Source: a plasmid. From it: a stretch of DNA of 64,000 nt. Position 1 is the stretch's first letter; the number at the start of each line of letters is the position of its first letter. A model generated the notes under the pieces. The model saw only the letters and a list, made by a program, of their open reading frames with translations, made no database searches and had not been told where the DNA came from. The position numbers and the translations under genes are program-made. Location: sequence record NZ_CP069398.1. One strand, written 5' to 3'. This document shows positions 45,761 through 49,309 of the stretch, piece by piece.

Positions 45761-46216
45761 ATGAGTCAAAACAAAAAAGTGTTTCTTGCAGGACCATTTA
45801 AAAGTCTAGTTGATCCAAAAACAGGAATGATGGCCAATCATGAAAAACAAAAGTTGTTAAATCTTATATCTTTTTTTGAAGAAAGAGGTTTTTCAGTCCA
45901 TAATGCGCACAAACGTGAAGGGTGGGGAAAGGACTTTATGACACCCGAAGAATGTACTGCAATAGATTTCAAAGAAATTAGTACATGCGATCTTTTCGTT
46001 GCCTTTCCGGGTTCACCAGCTTCCCCGGGAACCCATATAGAAATTGGATGGGCTTCTGCTTTAAATAAACCAATTATTCTGCTGCTAGAAGAAGGAAAAG
46101 ACTACGCCTTTTTAATAAAAGGCCTTGATGCTGTCGCTAATGTAATATCTATCCGTTATCAAAAAGAAGATGATTATTTAAGAGAAATCGAAAAACAGTA
46201 CTTACAATTCGTTTAG
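45761..46216 (+). CDS. nucleoside 2-deoxyribosyltransferase-family protein (MilB/BcmB-like nucleotide N-glycosidase candidate)
   Basis: N-terminal VFLAGPF and catalytic-Glu region GTHIEIGWASALNKPIILL match NDT/DNPH1/MilB family signatures; 151 aa. Confidence 0.65.
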   Translation: MSQNKKVFLAGPFKSLVDPKTGMMANHEKQKLLNLISFFEERGFSVHNAHKREGWGKDFMTPEECTAIDFKEISTCDLFVAFPGSPASPGTHIEIGWASALNKPIILLLEEGKDYAFLIKGLDAVANVISIRYQKEDDYLREIEKQYLQFV

Positions 46217-46228
46217 AAGGAGGTACAT

Positions 46229-47233
46229 ATGCAATACAGTAATTTCCACGAGGCTTATATAGAAACACTTTATGATACTTATCACAACCCACAATTTTTC
46301 AATGCACCACGTGGTAACCATAGTCGTGAGAAGCTTAATTATAACTTGAGTATTAAAAACCCTGTAGAACGTGTCTGTTATTTACCAAGCCGAAAAACGA
46401 ATATTGTTTTTAATTTTGCAGAAGTTTTATGGTATTTATCAGGTGATAATAGCCTTGATTTTATTAGTTACTATAACAAGAAAATGCCTGAATATTCAAT
46501 GAATGGAAAAACATTAACGGGGACAGCATATGGACCAAAAATCTTTGAATTTGGCAATGCCAAAATAAATCAATGGAAACAAATAAAAGATTTATTAACA
46601 CATGAAGATCCTGATTCCAAAAGAGCATTTATACAGATCTTTGATGCAACGGAATTAATGGTACCAAACAATATTGATATTTCTTGCACATTAGGTCTGC
46701 AATTTTTTGTAAGAGAAAATAAACTATATATGGCATCTTATATGCGTGCAAATGATGCTTTTCGTGGAATCATAAGTGATCTTTTTTCCTTTACATTTAT
46801 TCAAGAATTAATGGCCAGAGATCTTAACCTGGAATTAGGAGAGTATTTTCATAATGTTGGCTCCATCCACATTTATCAGCCGGATGATGAATGGACTGAA
46901 AAGGTGCTTCAGGAAGCTAAATCTGACCCACGAAACATGAAGCCTAAATTTAAATTCCCTAAAATGCCTTCTATAAATAATTGGCCTTCGATTGAAACTG
47001 TGCTAGAATATGAGGCTTTATTAAGAAAAGATCAGATTAAAATGTCAAGTTTAGACATTAAAAAATTGGATTTACCTGAATACTGGAAGCAAGTTCTTTT
47101 ACTTTTTAGTTTGTATCAATACATTGCTTATAAAAGACCAATTGATACTTCCTTATATGAAAACTTACTCCCAGTTTATCAGCATTTTGTTATTAATAAA
47201 TGGCCTTCAAAATTCACAACAATTGTAAAATAA
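46229..47233 (+). CDS. thymidylate synthase-like pyrimidine-nucleotide hydroxymethylase (MilA/BcmA/dCMP-hydroxymethylase-like)
   Basis: TS-fold motifs FNFAEVLWYLSGDN (cf. ELLWFLKG), catalytic Cys in DISCTLGLQFFV (cf. PCHALCQFYV), SYMRANDAF...GIISDLFSF (Asp where ThyA has Asn), H..GSIHIY. Confidence 0.7.
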   Translation: MQYSNFHEAYIETLYDTYHNPQFFNAPRGNHSREKLNYNLSIKNPVERVCYLPSRKTNIVFNFAEVLWYLSGDNSLDFISYYNKKMPEYSMNGKTLTGTAYGPKIFEFGNAKINQWKQIKDLLTHEDPDSKRAFIQIFDATELMVPNNIDISCTLGLQFFVRENKLYMASYMRANDAFRGIISDLFSFTFIQELMARDLNLELGEYFHNVGSIHIYQPDDEWTEKVLQEAKSDPRNMKPKFKFPKMPSINNWPSIETVLEYEALLRKDQIKMSSLDIKKLDLPEYWKQVLLLFSLYQYIAYKRPIDTSLYENLLPVYQHFVINKWPSKFTTIVK

Positions 47234-47259
47234 ATCTAGCCGAGGAGGAGAAGTAGATT

Positions 47260-48015
47260 ATGAAAACTTCTTTTAAAGAAGGAACCATTGCTAATAAATT
47301 TGAAGCTTACAATGATATACTTGAACAAACTTTAGGATTTCACTTTGTCTTTGAAACTTTCCTTTCAAATCCCAATGTAAAAAATATACTTGACTATGGA
47401 TGCGGACCGGGAAAAGTAGCTTATAGATTGTCCAAAAGTACGAACCTAAACATCATTGCTGTAGATGAATCAAAAGAAATGCTCGACATTGCTCAGGAAA
47501 AAAGAAACCATCCAAACGTAGATTATCATTTGATTGAAAATGACCAGTTGTCTTTTCTTGAGAATAATTCAGTTGACGGAGCCATGACCTGTTATGTATT
47601 TATTAATACGGAAAATAAAGATAGGATTCGGCGAATTATGAAAGAGATTTATCGAGTACTAAAACCTGATTCACCATTTGTTATTTTAGATACAAATCCT
47701 GATTCAACAGGTATCGAGTTTTCTACGTTTCGAAATGGTATACCAGGAAAAAAATATATAAGTGGAGAAGCACGACAAGAATGGTTACATATAGAGAACC
47801 AAGAGGATCTTATATTACATGACTTTCACTGGCCAAAATCAATGTATCAGGAAGTTCTGAAAGAGATAGGTTTCCGAGATATCGAACAACTAGAACCAAC
47901 TTTACGGGATATTCCTTATGAGGAATTAAAAAGGATTGAACAAGAACATAAATTTAGCCAATGGACACAGGAATGGGATTACCCTCCCTTCGTTCTTTAT
48001 CGATCCGTCAAATAA
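47260..48015 (+). CDS. class I SAM-dependent methyltransferase
   Basis: Motif I ILDYGCGPGKVA; motif II/III spacing typical; 251 aa. Confidence 0.7.
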   Translation: MKTSFKEGTIANKFEAYNDILEQTLGFHFVFETFLSNPNVKNILDYGCGPGKVAYRLSKSTNLNIIAVDESKEMLDIAQEKRNHPNVDYHLIENDQLSFLENNSVDGAMTCYVFINTENKDRIRRIMKEIYRVLKPDSPFVILDTNPDSTGIEFSTFRNGIPGKKYISGEARQEWLHIENQEDLILHDFHWPKSMYQEVLKEIGFRDIEQLEPTLRDIPYEELKRIEQEHKFSQWTQEWDYPPFVLYRSVK

Positions 48016-48067
48016 GTAGTCAAATAAGTAATGGAAGGTTTCAGAACTGTTCCAAGGAGAGAATATT

Positions 48068-49309
48068 ATGATAGCTGATGAATTTGATGTATTTTTATTT
48101 GACTTAGATGGAGTAATTTATATAGGATCAGAACCACTTCCTGAGGCAGTAGAATCACTTAGGCGTCTTCGAAAAGAAAAGAAAGAGATTAGATTTTTAA
48201 CTAATGATCCATGTACAACACGGGAAAAAACAGCAAAACGGTTAAGTAAGCTAGGTATAGAAGCAAGCAGCGAAGAAGTAATTACGTCTGGTTGGTTGAC
48301 CGCACAATATTTACACCATGAAAAAGTCAGAACTGCATTTGTTTTAAGTGATGAAAATTTAAAATGGGAATGTCAACAAGTTGGTATCAATATAAAAGAT
48401 CAAACCAATGTAGAAGCCGTTGTTGTTGGGTGGGACGATAATGCGTCTTTTCATGATATCCAGAAAGCAGCAAAATTTATTCATAAAGGATCAAAATTTG
48501 TTGCCACAAATGCAGACAGAACGTTTCCAACCCCTGAAGGTCCTTTACCTGCTGTTGGGGCAATGGTGGAAGCGATACGGGTTTCAACAGAGAAAAGACC
48601 TATCATTGTCGGAAAACCTTACCCTTATATGTTTAAAAAGGCACTTGAAGATTTTATTCCATCCTCCAGAGCAGTAATGGTGGGTGATAATCCATATACT
48701 GATATTTTGGGCGCACATCAGGCAGGAATACCGGCCATTTTGGTATCAGAGCAAAATGTTAAAAAGTTCCCGTCAGCAAGAGATTTCCGCAATCCAGATG
48801 CTACGATACCAAATTTAAAGAGTTTATTTGACAGTAATATAAACATAAAAAAGTGGATTTCCCCTTCCTTTTCTTGGCCAGATAATATCGAAGCAGGAGT
48901 TGCAGGCATTATTTTTGATAAAAAACAGCGAGTTCTTCTAATGAAACGTGCAGATAACGGATTATGGGGAATTCCATCGGGCCATGTTGAGCCAGGAGAA
49001 ACTGTAGAGGAAGCAATCATCAGAGAAATTAGGGAAGAAACCGGTTTGAGAGTCAAAGTTAATAGGTTAATCGGAGTTTATTCTGATCCTGTTTCTCAGG
49101 TTTTTTCATATCCAAACGGTAATGTAAGTCACTTTATTACAACATGTTTTGAATGTGAAGTTATAGGTGGAACTCTAAATAGAAAAAGCGAAGAGACATT
49201 AGATGCGGATTATTTCGACTTTAATCATTTACCAGAAAATCTCCTAAACATGCATCCAAGATGGCTTAAGGATGCATTAGAAAGGGAAAGAATTTCTTAT
49301 ATTCGTTAG
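48068..49309 (+). CDS. HAD-IIA phosphatase / NUDIX hydrolase fusion protein
   Basis: HAD motif I FLFDLDGVIY and motif IV VGDN...DILGA; C-terminal NUDIX box GHVEPGETVEEAIIREIREETGL. Confidence 0.75.
   Translation: MIADEFDVFLFDLDGVIYIGSEPLPEAVESLRRLRKEKKEIRFLTNDPCTTREKTAKRLSKLGIEASSEEVITSGWLTAQYLHHEKVRTAFVLSDENLKWECQQVGINIKDQTNVEAVVVGWDDNASFHDIQKAAKFIHKGSKFVATNADRTFPTPEGPLPAVGAMVEAIRVSTEKRPIIVGKPYPYMFKKALEDFIPSSRAVMVGDNPYTDILGAHQAGIPAILVSEQNVKKFPSARDFRNPDATIPNLKSLFDSNINIKKWISPSFSWPDNIEAGVAGIIFDKKQRVLLMKRADNGLWGIPSGHVEPGETVEEAIIREIREETGLRVKVNRLIGVYSDPVSQVFSYPNGNVSHFITTCFECEVIGGTLNRKSEETLDADYFDFNHLPENLLNMHPRWLKDALERERISYIR

Follow-up and report, generated by a model that had tools for sequence, protein, structure and literature searches.

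The 64,000-nt stretch of plasmid NZ_CP069398.1 analysed here (the window) contains a complete Tn3-family transposon of 7,787 bp (41644..49430, unstranded), bounded by inverted repeats at both ends, whose cargo is a four-gene operon preceded by a TPP riboswitch. From sequence comparisons, we consider it probable that this thiamin-regulated operon makes a bacimethrin-type pyrimidine; its last gene, yzgD, may protect the producer. The bacimethrin pathway and all four enzymes are already known; what is new is the mobilization, with the pathway genes together on a recently active transposon of Bacillus-like bacteria.

Genes of the operon

As the first-pass annotation had proposed, the operon consists of four intact, co-oriented ORFs on the + strand (45761-49309), separated by 12, 26 and 52 bp. 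Their order is bcmB-like (g1), bcmA-like (g2), bcmC-like (g3) and a yzgD orthologue encoding a HAD-IIA::NUDIX fusion (g4). The products of g1, g2 and g3 are, respectively, 55, 57 and 44 % identical to the validated BcmB, BcmA and BcmC of Clostridium botulinum, whose genes share this order; the reference locus was the one whose BcmB is 100 % identical to the crystallised BcmB. All four genes show dN/dS values of 0.04-0.14, and a hairpin with a 16-bp stem (49336..49371, unstranded) closes the operon. Together, homology, synteny, specificity residues and the riboswitch support the route suggested earlier, which would lead from CMP through hmCMP and 5hmC to an O-methylated pyrimidine.

The product of g1 (45761..46216, + strand; 151 aa, PF05014) is a BcmB-like hmCMP N-glycosidase, matching BcmB (PDB 4JEN, E 1.6e-50) and MilB (4JEM, E 1.8e-48). 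Residues F13, K14, E53, D69, S88, G90 and E94 correspond to F22, R23, E62, D78, S97, G99 and E103 of MilB; K14 is equivalent to Lys12 of BcmB, and the residues for hmCMP recognition (P-F-K14) are kept. The product of g2 (46229..47233, + strand; 334 aa, PF00303) is a BcmA-like CMP 5-hydroxymethylase with a TS fold. It matched MilA (PDB 5JNH/5B6D) with E about 1e-100, as against about 1e-17 for ThyA, and its PF00303 score of 78.7 bits lies far under every ThyA equivalog cut-off in NCBIfam. Residues E65, K131, C153, A174, D184, H214 and Y216 align with E68, K133, C155, A176, D186, H216 and Y218 of MilA, retaining those for ribo-CMP (K131/A174, where dCMP/dUMP enzymes have R/S), cytosine (D184) and catalysis (C153 and E65). 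The catalytic Cys in DISCTLG and the Asp in GIISDLFSF singled out in the first-pass annotation are C153 and D184, and both are real.

A bcmC-like SAM-dependent methyltransferase of 251 aa is encoded by g3 (47260..48015, + strand), which belongs to the class I SAM-MTase families and has the SAM motif LDYGCGPG. Against the MTase at the matching position of the validated cluster it scores E 6e-80 (44 % identity), and a g3 homologue adjoins BcmA in 47 of 80 loci, the validated one included. The nearest solved structures are those of unrelated MTases (E about 1e-8), so the regiochemistry of g3 is unreadable from its sequence. To our knowledge, BcmC has neither a structure nor known specificity residues.

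The yzgD orthologue g4 (48068..49309, + strand) encodes, according to Pfam (PF13344/PF00702/PF13242 and PF00293) and NCBIfam, a HAD-IIA phosphatase domain (aa 1-262) followed by a fused NUDIX hydrolase domain (aa 269-413), with the HAD motifs DLDGV and GDNPYTD and the Nudix box GHVEPGETVEEAIIREIREETGL intact. The proteins that Paenibacillus encodes at the equivalent place in its operon are 54-58 % identical in the HAD domain and 62-72 % in the NUDIX domain; the literature calls them YzgD, and a 2017 drawing of the Paenibacillus thiaminase I/bacimethrin operon shows YzgD as its gene 7 (PMC5627462). The HAD domain of YZGD is a PLP phosphatase that does not cleave TMP or TPP, HMP-P being absent from the substrates tried, and its Nudix domain acts on CDP-alcohols (the best substrates, with release of NMP) and ADP-ribose (Tirrell et al. 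2006 Biochem J 394:665). The first-pass annotation had taken a mobile version of the pathway with a fused HAD-NUDIX partner to be undescribed: the mobilization is indeed new, but the fusion is YzgD, characterised in 2006 and drawn in 2017. In our survey, YzgD and bcm genes occurred together in at least 16 further genomes. The minimal mobile module has kept YzgD, and at one locus (L097) bcmA/bcmC are accompanied by a non-orthologous NUDIX and HAD pair. Fusions of the YzgD type occur widely, often by themselves and remote from bcm genes.

Leader RNA and related gene clusters

Upstream of bcmB lies a TPP riboswitch aptamer (THI element; 45559..45669, + strand), matching the full-length RF00059 model with 79.8 bits (E 3.9e-14; gathering score 54.3). 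It is followed by an intrinsic terminator (45709..45745, + strand; 10-bp stem and T-run) as expression platform, whose 5' arm CCACUU can alternatively pair with the P1 3' strand AGUGGG (about 45652) to form an antiterminator. This arrangement, directly upstream of the genes, links the operon to thiamin. A search upstream of the riboswitch found no convincing promoter candidate. Homologous riboswitches precede bcmB in four other genera (L006, L008, L011 and L019). The riboswitch had been missed in the first-pass annotation.

The C. botulinum bcmABCDE bacimethrin cluster (Cooper, O'Leary & Begley 2014, Biochemistry 53:2215, as presented in PMC5627462 and PMC12345177) contains the N-glycosidase, CMP hydroxymethylase and SAM MTase in the same order and shares the specificity residues. 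In contrast to our element, it is chromosomal, not transposon-borne, lacks YzgD, and includes thiaminase I, a ThiD-like kinase and a MarR regulator with an ABC exporter; at the Clostridium loci, no TPP riboswitch was detected at the gathering threshold within 8 kb. Consecutive bcmB-bcmA-bcmC-yzgD genes also occur in the thiaminase I operon of Paenibacillus thiaminolyticus, P. apiarius and P. dendritiformis, reported to be regulated by a TPP riboswitch (PMC5627462), with identities to ours of 64-73 % for bcmB, bcmA and bcmC and about 58 % for YzgD. There, however, the four genes are chromosomal, flanked by thiM-thiD-thiE on one side and by thiaminase I and a HAD-IA gene on the other; our transposon carries them as an independent module that has a riboswitch of its own. 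MilA and MilB of the mildiomycin pathway (Streptomyces rimofaciens; PMC5175136, PMC4081090), 49 and 54 % identical to their counterparts, share the chemistry of the first two steps and the catalytic and specificity residues, but our operon has an MTase instead of the downstream mildiomycin genes, and its regulation is thiamin-based.

Chromosomal bcmB-A-C-yzgD operons of identical architecture are present in Planococcus sp. A6, Bacillus manliponensis and Virgibacillus chiguensis, and we found no description of them in the literature. Their DNA is homologous to our cargo (73-77 %) from the riboswitch, or from a point shortly before it, in Planococcus and B. manliponensis, and from the start codon of bcmB in Virgibacillus, as far as the yzgD stop or slightly beyond. 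Planococcus and B. manliponensis were confirmed to have the riboswitch; Virgibacillus (L009) was not. Since such chromosomal copies exist in several Bacillaceae, the riboswitch and four-gene module is not unique to the transposon. Lacking inverted repeats, TnpA and TnpI, these loci look like the source type from which the cargo was captured.

Proposed mechanism and alternative readings

At high TPP, the leader RNA would bind TPP and form the terminator, switching the operon off, and at low TPP the antiterminator would allow transcription to continue. BcmA would then convert CMP to 5-hydroxymethyl-CMP, BcmB would cut its N-glycosidic bond to free 5-hydroxymethylcytosine, and BcmC, with SAM, would O-methylate this to bacimethrin (4-amino-5-hydroxymethyl-2-methoxypyrimidine). 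Target cells would turn this analogue of HMP into the toxic cofactor mimic 2'-methoxy-TPP. In the producer, MeO-HMP-PP (or MeO-TPP) may lose its pyrophosphate through the NUDIX domain of YzgD, and the last phosphate may be taken off by the HAD domain, which is PLP-phosphatase-like; we propose that bacimethrin would therefore be kept from the host's own ThiE and be free for export. If this mechanism is true, YzgD would protect the producer. That YzgD may be the immunity or dephosphorylation enzyme is a new idea. Precedent comes from E. coli NudJ (YmfB), a bacimethrin-resistance Nudix hydrolase in the account of Lawhorn, Gerdes & Begley (2004) given in PMC5158307. YzgD has no specific sequence relationship to NudJ, with no NudJ model among the NCBIfam matches of its NUDIX domain, and differs in being fused to a HAD-IIA phosphatase.

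YzgD could instead be a supply enzyme, its NUDIX domain making CMP from CDP-alcohols for BcmA and its HAD domain being incidental. The preference of YZGD Nudix for CDP-alcohols, with release of NMP, and the use of CMP by BcmA fit this role, but CMP is already an abundant metabolite, and neither the conserved fusion to a PLP-phosphatase-type HAD domain nor the independent association of HAD and NUDIX in L097 would be explained; given also the direct precedent for Nudix-mediated bacimethrin resistance, we hold a supply role to be doubtful. It is unlikely that the same first two steps lead to a differently methylated or otherwise distinct pyrimidine: although g3 is only 44 % identical to BcmC, it is the syntenic orthologue of the MTase in the 47 bcmA loci, ORF inspection revealed no further tailoring genes within the transposon, and control by a TPP riboswitch suits an HMP analogue. 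We also judge it quite improbable that the operon serves thiamin/pyrimidine salvage or homeostasis, not allelopathy, for instance by making an HMP-like compound for the host's own use or sensing, YzgD then being a housekeeping phosphatase. The toxicity of bacimethrin, exerted through 2'-methoxy-TPP, is documented; thiD, thiE and thiM are all missing from the transposon; and we know of no pathway from a 2-methoxy/2-oxo pyrimidine to 2-methyl HMP. Against these points stand the usual association of TPP riboswitches with thiamin biosynthesis, salvage and transport genes, the location of bcm genes among thiM/thiD/thiE/tenA/thiaminase I in Paenibacillus and L097, and the salvage role raised for the Paenibacillus operon in 2017 (PMC5627462).

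Several transposon copies have a frameshifted bcmA (L094-L096), indicating that selection for the cargo is not universal, and there are also an in-frame stop in bcmA of L005 and truncated copies. Even so, the cargo is very unlikely to be a decaying hitch-hiker without function in this host, because the window copy has kept its riboswitch, its catalytic motifs and each of its four ORFs intact, and dN/dS is well under 1. That the genes form an anti-phage module acting on the nucleotide pool, or a system for DNA hypermodification (hm-dCMP), appears extremely improbable. TS-fold hydroxymethylases and NUDIX enzymes are known from phage and defence contexts, and PADLOC gave weak domain-level matches for g3 (mad2) and g4 (PDC-S07), but none for g1 and g2; moreover, g2 carries the ribo-specific K131/A174, not R/S, g1 destroys the nucleotide to give a free base, phage context is absent, and TPP riboswitch control would be left unexplained. 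The anti-phage module and another nucleoside antibiotic had been the alternatives listed in the first-pass annotation, and neither gained support from the locus survey or PADLOC. Bacimethrin synthesis, with probable self-protection by YzgD, remains our preferred reading.

The transposon and its surroundings

The earlier suggestion that the operon is Tn3 cargo is borne out by a Tn3 transposase, a tyrosine recombinase and terminal inverted repeats. A repeat search placed the left repeat (GGGGTAGCAACAGCG...) at 41644..41686 (+ strand), interrupting an IS21 istA ORF, and the right one at 49388..49430 (- strand); these repeats of ~43 bp start with GGGG and are identical at 41 of 44 positions, and their 32-nt core has exactly two occurrences in the window, versus 0 expected. 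Both transposition genes are on the - strand: a tyrosine recombinase of 235 aa, a TnpI-like resolvase (41687..42394; PF00589, 1.4e-31; XerA/XerC-type NCBIfam matches), and the Tn3-family DDE transposase TnpA of 994 aa (42391..45375; NF033527, 948.7 bits; PF01526 and PF13700), whose closest plasmid counterpart shares just 76 % identity. Next to them, two AAGTTCC...GGAACTT dyads (45378/45401 and 45470/45495; region 45378..45501, unstranded) form a putative res/IRS site and may function as such; the breakpoint of a transposase-less remnant (L004), at 45440, lies between the two.

Our element resembles Tn3-family transposons with a tyrosine recombinase (Tn4430/Tn5401 type), as well as Tn3-family elements of Bacillus that bear cargo, for example Tn1546-spoVA2mob (PMC5133452). 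Shared features are a large DDE TnpA, GGGG inverted repeats of roughly 40 bp, target duplications of 5 bp, a passenger operon and a resolvase that is site-specific. It differs from them in the order tnpA then tnpI, the 235-aa recombinase and a cargo consisting of an antivitamin biosynthetic operon, versus resistance, toxin or spore genes.

Other assemblies hold the transposon at 99.87-100 % identity, often as a lone contig of ~7.77 kb, and an identical element occurs in Pallidibacillus pasinlerensis, Heyndrickxia-annotated sequences and metagenomes. Perfect 5-bp target duplications flank it at two independent sites (TTTTA in L003 and TAATA in L090/L092), and the transposon has been recently active. 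In a sister backbone of the transposon, metal-resistance cargo occupies the slot that here holds the operon. For the window copy, the duplication is imperfect (TACAA/TTCAA) and the two flanks do not form one contiguous sequence. All of the window is the backbone of a conjugative element, which had gone unnoticed in the first-pass annotation.

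Genes of the bacimethrin-type operon

Four co-oriented genes lie on the + strand exactly where the first-pass annotation had placed them, separated by gaps of 12, 26 and 52 bp. Matches to Pfam and NCBIfam models bore out the families it had claimed for gene 1 (45761-46216; NDT fold, PF05014), gene 2 (46229-47233; thymidylate-synthase fold, PF00303, 78.7 bits), gene 3 (47260-48015; class I SAM methyltransferase) and gene 4 (48068-49309; a HAD-IIA and NUDIX fusion).

In a comparison with all PDB sequences, gene 2 matched MilA, from mildiomycin biosynthesis, with an E value of about 1e-100 and 49% identity, as against about 1e-17 for true thymidylate synthases. 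The residues considered diagnostic for MilA are the nucleophile Cys155, Glu68, the ribose-binding His216 and Tyr218, the pair Lys133/Ala176, which confers ribo-CMP specificity and is Arg/Ser in dCMP and dUMP enzymes, and Asp186, which confers cytosine specificity and is Asn in uracil enzymes (MilA/MilB papers: PMC5175136, PMC4081090). All seven are kept in gene 2 (E65, K131, C153, A174, D184, H214 and Y216) and are invariant across 23 homologues. Both motifs previously noted in this protein, DISCTLG and GIISDLFSF, are present, and the cytosine-type Asp claimed for it is D184, the equivalent of MilA Asp186.

PDB entries matching gene 1 included BcmB of Clostridium botulinum (4JEN, annotated as CMP N-glycosidase; E value 1.6e-50) and MilB (1.8e-48). 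Diagnostic residues of MilB are Phe22, Arg23, Glu62, Asp78, Ser97, Gly99 and the catalytic Glu103; Arg23, a positive residue that recognises the 5-hydroxymethyl group, corresponds to Lys12 in BcmB and to Met in the CMP-specific BlsM (MilB paper). The equivalents in gene 1 are F13, K14, E53, D69, S88, G90 and E94, with K14 matching BcmB Lys12 and E94 matching MilB Glu103, and its motif FLAGPFK fits the pattern F-L-(G/A)-(G/A)-P-F-(K/R).

Genes 1, 2 and 3 share their order with three consecutive genes of the C. botulinum bcm locus (L036), showing 54.9, 57.4 and 44.4% identity (E values of 3e-59, 5e-144 and 6e-80, respectively); this locus represents the experimentally validated cluster, because its BcmB is 100% identical to the crystallised protein. 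Gene 3 contains the SAM motif, and a search of PDB sequences returned no close solved structure for this methyltransferase; it is therefore named a putative BcmC from its homology and from conserved synteny, the methyltransferase adjoining BcmA in 47 of the 80 surveyed loci. Neither the transposon carrying the operon nor the 8-kb flanks of its identical copies contain genes for BcmD (ThiD-like kinase) or BcmE (thiaminase I), which many loci with bcmC lack as well and which the three-step synthesis does not require.

Other readings of these genes were rejected (ALTERNATIVES), namely a ThyA or dCMP hydroxymethylase, a mildiomycin/blasticidin-type antibiotic cluster and a known anti-phage system. 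Despite the shared fold, gene 2 reached a best ThyA equivalog score of only about 75 bits in NCBIfam versus a cut-off of 327 for the best-matching model (ThyA equivalog cut-offs are 108 or more), and D184, K131 and A174 replace the Asn and Arg/Ser of canonical ThyA. Its Lys/Ala pair is likewise that of the ribo-specific MilA and BcmA, not the Arg/Ser of a phage-type dCMP hydroxymethylase such as T4 gp42. The first-pass annotation had also left room for another nucleoside antibiotic, but nucleoside-assembly genes are absent beside the MilA and MilB homologues: the cargo between the putative res site and the right inverted repeat (IRR) consists of just four genes, and the methyltransferase comes next, as in bcm clusters. 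Its remaining alternative, an anti-phage module, found little in PADLOC, where genes 1 and 2 had zero matches and genes 3 and 4 had generic, domain-level matches only. A bacimethrin pathway carried by a transposon is the reading that we consider probable, with bacimethrin as its predicted product.

A TPP riboswitch and the proposed pathway

Upstream of gene 1, the first-pass annotation had missed a full-length TPP riboswitch (45559-45669; Rfam RF00059, model positions 1-105), which scored 79.8 bits (E value 3.9e-14; gathering score 54.3). It is followed by a T-tailed terminator with a 10-bp stem (45709-45745), ending 16 nt ahead of the start codon of gene 1. The minimum-energy fold has P1's 3' strand (AGUGGG) base-paired to CCACUU, the 5' arm of the terminator, a classical antiterminator alternative; the direction of regulation that we infer is therefore that bound TPP should turn transcription off. 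A promoter scan between the putative res site and the riboswitch returned no convincing sigma-70 promoter. The riboswitch is an independent feature that ties the operon to thiamin metabolism, as predicted by a pathway for bacimethrin, an analogue of HMP, the pyrimidine building block of vitamin B1.

Rfam scans of 16 loci likewise placed a TPP riboswitch ahead of bcmB in those of Planococcus, B. manliponensis, B. swezeyi and Leuconostoc. The bcm operons of Clostridium and Paenibacillus are also described as riboswitch-controlled (PMC5627462, 2017); nevertheless, no TPP riboswitch reached the gathering score within 8 kb in the loci of Clostridium (L023 and L036) or Paenibacillus (L014 and L017). 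The Clostridium cluster has MarR and ABC exporter genes upstream in place of the riboswitch.

Under low TPP, transcription would read through into the operon, and BcmA would convert CMP into 5-hydroxymethyl-CMP (hmCMP), from which BcmB would release 5-hydroxymethylcytosine (5hmC) and ribose-5-phosphate; BcmC would then use 5hmC and SAM to produce bacimethrin. In target cells, ThiD, ThiE and a kinase turn bacimethrin into the inhibitory 2'-methoxy-TPP, a danger to which a producer with a normal ThiD would be equally exposed.

YzgD and the question of producer immunity

The HAD-NUDIX fusion encoded by gene 4, which had been thought undescribed, is YzgD, already present in the operon of Fig. 4 of PMC5627462. 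Fusions of about 413 aa with this architecture follow the methyltransferase in Paenibacillus thiaminolyticus, P. apiarius, P. dendritiformis and others, and occupy the same position in Planococcus, Virgibacillus, B. manliponensis and even Actinopolyspora; in B. vallismortis, B. velezensis and B. swezeyi the fusion lies downstream of the methyltransferase, after a ThiD-like kinase. That figure agrees gene for gene with the operon found in P. thiaminolyticus (thiM-thiD-thiE-NDT-TS-MTase-HAD::NUDIX-thiaminase I-HAD), and labels gene 7 as a yzgD NUDIX hydrolase. Gene 4 shows 54-58% identity over the HAD domain and 62-72% over the NUDIX domain with the Paenibacillus proteins encoded after the methyltransferase, and its HAD motifs (DLDGV, FLTN, VGKP and GDNPYTD) and Nudix box are all intact.

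According to the 2006 biochemistry as relayed in PMC5627462, the HAD domain of YzgD is a pyridoxal-phosphate phosphatase that did not cleave TMP, TPP or THZ-P, with HMP-P outside the substrate panel described, and the substrates split by the Nudix domain are CDP-alcohols, ADP-ribose and other NDP-X compounds of this kind; the authors called the relation of YzgD to the operon unclear. Fusions of the YzgD type are far more widespread than bcm genes and stand alone in Sporosarcina, Aeribacillus, Aminobacterium and a plasmid of C. estertheticum, indicating that YzgD is a recruited enzyme, not one exclusive to the pathway. The copy on this last plasmid (pCF002-344; L001, 9015-10259) is a lone yzgD with 79% DNA identity to that of the transposon, with no bcm genes nearby and no riboswitch in an Rfam scan, which suggests that yzgD alone moved horizontally between Bacilli and Clostridia.

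From the producer's own exposure to 2'-methoxy-TPP, we infer that the Nudix domain would strip the pyrophosphate, converting MeO-HMP-PP into MeO-HMP-P, and that the HAD domain would take the last phosphate from MeO-HMP-P, yielding free, exportable bacimethrin. Pyridoxal phosphate resembles HMP-P in being a phosphorylated hydroxymethyl-azine, and the kinases that act on the two, PdxK and ThiD, are homologous. Such a two-step dephosphorylation and self-protection role for YzgD is possible, at slightly less than even chances. Consistent with it, YzgD is the sole accessory gene kept in the portable module, and other cluster types carry instead a ThiD-like kinase, proposed to be a discriminating ThiD2. 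Also consistent is a metagenome scaffold (L097, 4913-12283) with the order ThiD-ThiE-HAD(IA)-[NUDIX::BcmA fusion, 422 aa]-MTase-thiaminase I-cytosine/purine permease-TenA, in which no BcmB-like gene was visible. The NUDIX of this cluster is a distant relative at best of that in YzgD (34% over the Nudix box), so NUDIX and HAD domains were apparently recruited to the pathway independently.

Several observations count against an immunity role: the homologues often stand alone, the published Nudix substrates are CDP-alcohols, and the NUDIX domain of gene 4 is no NudJ orthologue, reaching neither NudJ nor any other equivalog, although a functional analogy to NudJ is possible. The substrates also fit a rival reading, in which the Nudix domain would supply CMP from CDP-alcohols. 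The fullest version of the immunity reading is a portable cassette of antivitamin weapon and antidote, whose riboswitch would fire when thiamin is scarce, whose three enzymes would make bacimethrin and in which YzgD would be a dedicated two-step immunity enzyme; taken as a whole, we regard this cassette as rather unlikely. If true, it would let any recipient with normal ThiD and ThiE survive making bacimethrin, give YzgD the physiological function that has been open since 2006, and mean that horizontal spread of allelopathic vitamin antagonism occurs by way of a Tn3 passenger that is itself carried within conjugative elements.

The transposon and its spread

Recent work has shown that bacimethrin works in natural waters as an allelopathic antagonist of vitamin B1 (PMC12345177, PMC12637900), and its producers and the spread of the trait are poorly mapped. 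The pathway chemistry itself is not new, since the pathway (2014), the enzyme structures (2013-2016), YzgD (2006) and the bcmBAC-yzgD neighbourhood under a TPP riboswitch (2017) are already published. Full-text searches returned no literature linking bacimethrin biosynthesis to a transposon, both terms co-occurring only in two papers on unrelated subjects, and none describing the 7,787-bp element reported here. What is new is that the operon rides on a recently active Tn3-family transposon, which occurs in several hosts and here lies inside a conjugative element, so that a complete, thiamin-gated bacimethrin-type module can travel in 7.8 kb. Also new is the definition of a minimal, self-regulated four-gene module, comprising the riboswitch, three enzymes and YzgD, which opens the long-unexplained YzgD to direct testing for a role in self-resistance or dephosphorylation.

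The claim that the operon is Tn3 cargo was confirmed using as criteria a DDE_Tnp_Tn3 transposase of about 1000 aa, inverted repeats of about 38-48 bp starting with GGGG and a 5-bp target duplication. Upstream of the operon and divergent from it lies a gene for a 994-aa transposase (NF033527; 948.7 bits, cut-off 500), overlapped by that of a 235-aa tyrosine recombinase. Inverted repeats at 41644-41686 and 49388-49430 start with GGGGTA, are identical at 41/44 positions and delimit the element (41644-49430); the window holds exactly two copies of their 32-nt core, against 0 expected by chance. Two AAGTTCC...GGAACTT dyads (45378/45401 and 45470/45495) in the interval from tnpA to the riboswitch form a plausible candidate res site, a proposal based on the dyads and on the breakpoint of a remnant in Bacillus sp. 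FJAT-47783 (L004). This remnant (7212-11190), in a chromosomal context beside glycolate-oxidase-like genes, starts between the two dyads and keeps the segment from 45440 to the right inverted repeat with 98% identity but without the transposase, suggesting that tnpA/tnpI were lost either through res or by deletion.

The transposon occurs with 99.87-100% identity in Pallidibacillus pasinlerensis P1 (L003), in sequences annotated as Heyndrickxia sporothermodurans, in two more assemblies and in several metagenomes or read-set assemblies, and has moved recently among spore-formers of the Bacillaceae that matter to the dairy and food sectors. Copies in metagenomes and assemblies are mostly lone contigs of about 7.77 kb, as would be expected of a repeated or variable-context element. 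A 5-bp target duplication is a hallmark of Tn3-family transposition, and perfect duplications flank two independent insertions (TTTTA in L003 and TAATA in the copies L090/L092); the copy L093 lacks one. The window copy has imperfect 5-bp flanks (TACAA/TTCAA), so transposition is demonstrated from the other copies. On its left (40893-41690), an IS21 istA gene is truncated by the inverted repeat at 41643; on its right (49431-50588), the repeat ends 18 bp before the ATG (49449) of a MsmX/UgpC-like ABC ATPase gene, abutting its ribosome-binding site. As these flanks differ and are not contiguous, the window copy underwent rearrangement or deletion after insertion.

Searching PLSDB plasmids with the whole transposon returned no copy, matching only the stand-alone yzgD of C. 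estertheticum and an unrelated TnpA. The nearest plasmid-borne relative, in Paenibacillus bovis (L098; NZ_CP021170, 138698-155682), has a TnpA with 76% identity and the same tnpA-tnpI order, and its slot equivalent to the bcm operon contains ArsR, a heavy-metal P-type ATPase, a methyltransferase and an arsenic-resistance protein, which argues for a modular passenger position. Cytobacillus firmus NBRC 15306 (L005) contains a decayed version with 81% identity, a tnpA deletion, a truncated bcmC and an in-frame TGA stop in bcmA (5294-6295), indicating that the association of backbone and cargo predates the currently spreading clone.

Alignments with chromosomal operons start at 45548 (Planococcus) and 45501 (B. 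manliponensis), at or just upstream of the riboswitch, and those with L007 and the Virgibacillus locus L009 start at 45720-45759, downstream of the aptamer. All four, at 73-77% identity, run to the yzgD stop or slightly beyond it (49281-49378); the captured unit is therefore the whole riboswitch and four-gene operon, of the Bacillaceae minimal subtype. The four genes are under purifying selection, with dN/dS values of 0.04-0.14 against the loci L006 and L008 and of 0-0.31 against the FJAT-47783 remnant. In several otherwise near-identical copies (L094-L096, at about 4577-5579), a frameshift splits bcmA into ORFs of 174 and 167 aa; inactivation of the cargo is under way in some hosts.

The left part of the window (746-18486) is the backbone of a conjugative element, with genes for a T4SS coupling protein (746-3187, - strand), a YukC-like protein (3197-4513, -), a TraG/VirB4-like P-loop ATPase (7895-9817, -), a DnaB_2-type replication protein (12256-13434, +) and a MobA/MobL relaxase (16465-18486, +). 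Two layers of mobility therefore surround the operon. A PLSDB search with 1-20 kb of the window returned no close relative of this backbone and only short matches to Priestia. The window also carries group II introns and IS110, IS4 and IS21 elements. The introns are represented by three copies or fragments (22104-30290), with Rfam matches to domains D1-D4 (22104-22277) and V/VI (24581-24678, 25774-25851 and 30213-30290, two of them scoring identically at 65.7 bits) and RT/maturase ORFs at 22558-24195, 24650-25747 and 28501-30186. An IS110-family and an IS4-type DDE transposase lie downstream of the transposon (56519-57832 and 61214-62572, respectively).

Separately from the transposon, several Leuconostoc spp. 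(L019, L021, L025, L026, L028, L030 and L031) contain just the trio bcmB-bcmA-bcmC, near which genes for YzgD, a ThiD-like kinase and thiaminase I are all missing, and a TPP riboswitch was confirmed in L019; lactic acid bacteria of kimchi and meat may be unrecognised producers of bacimethrin.
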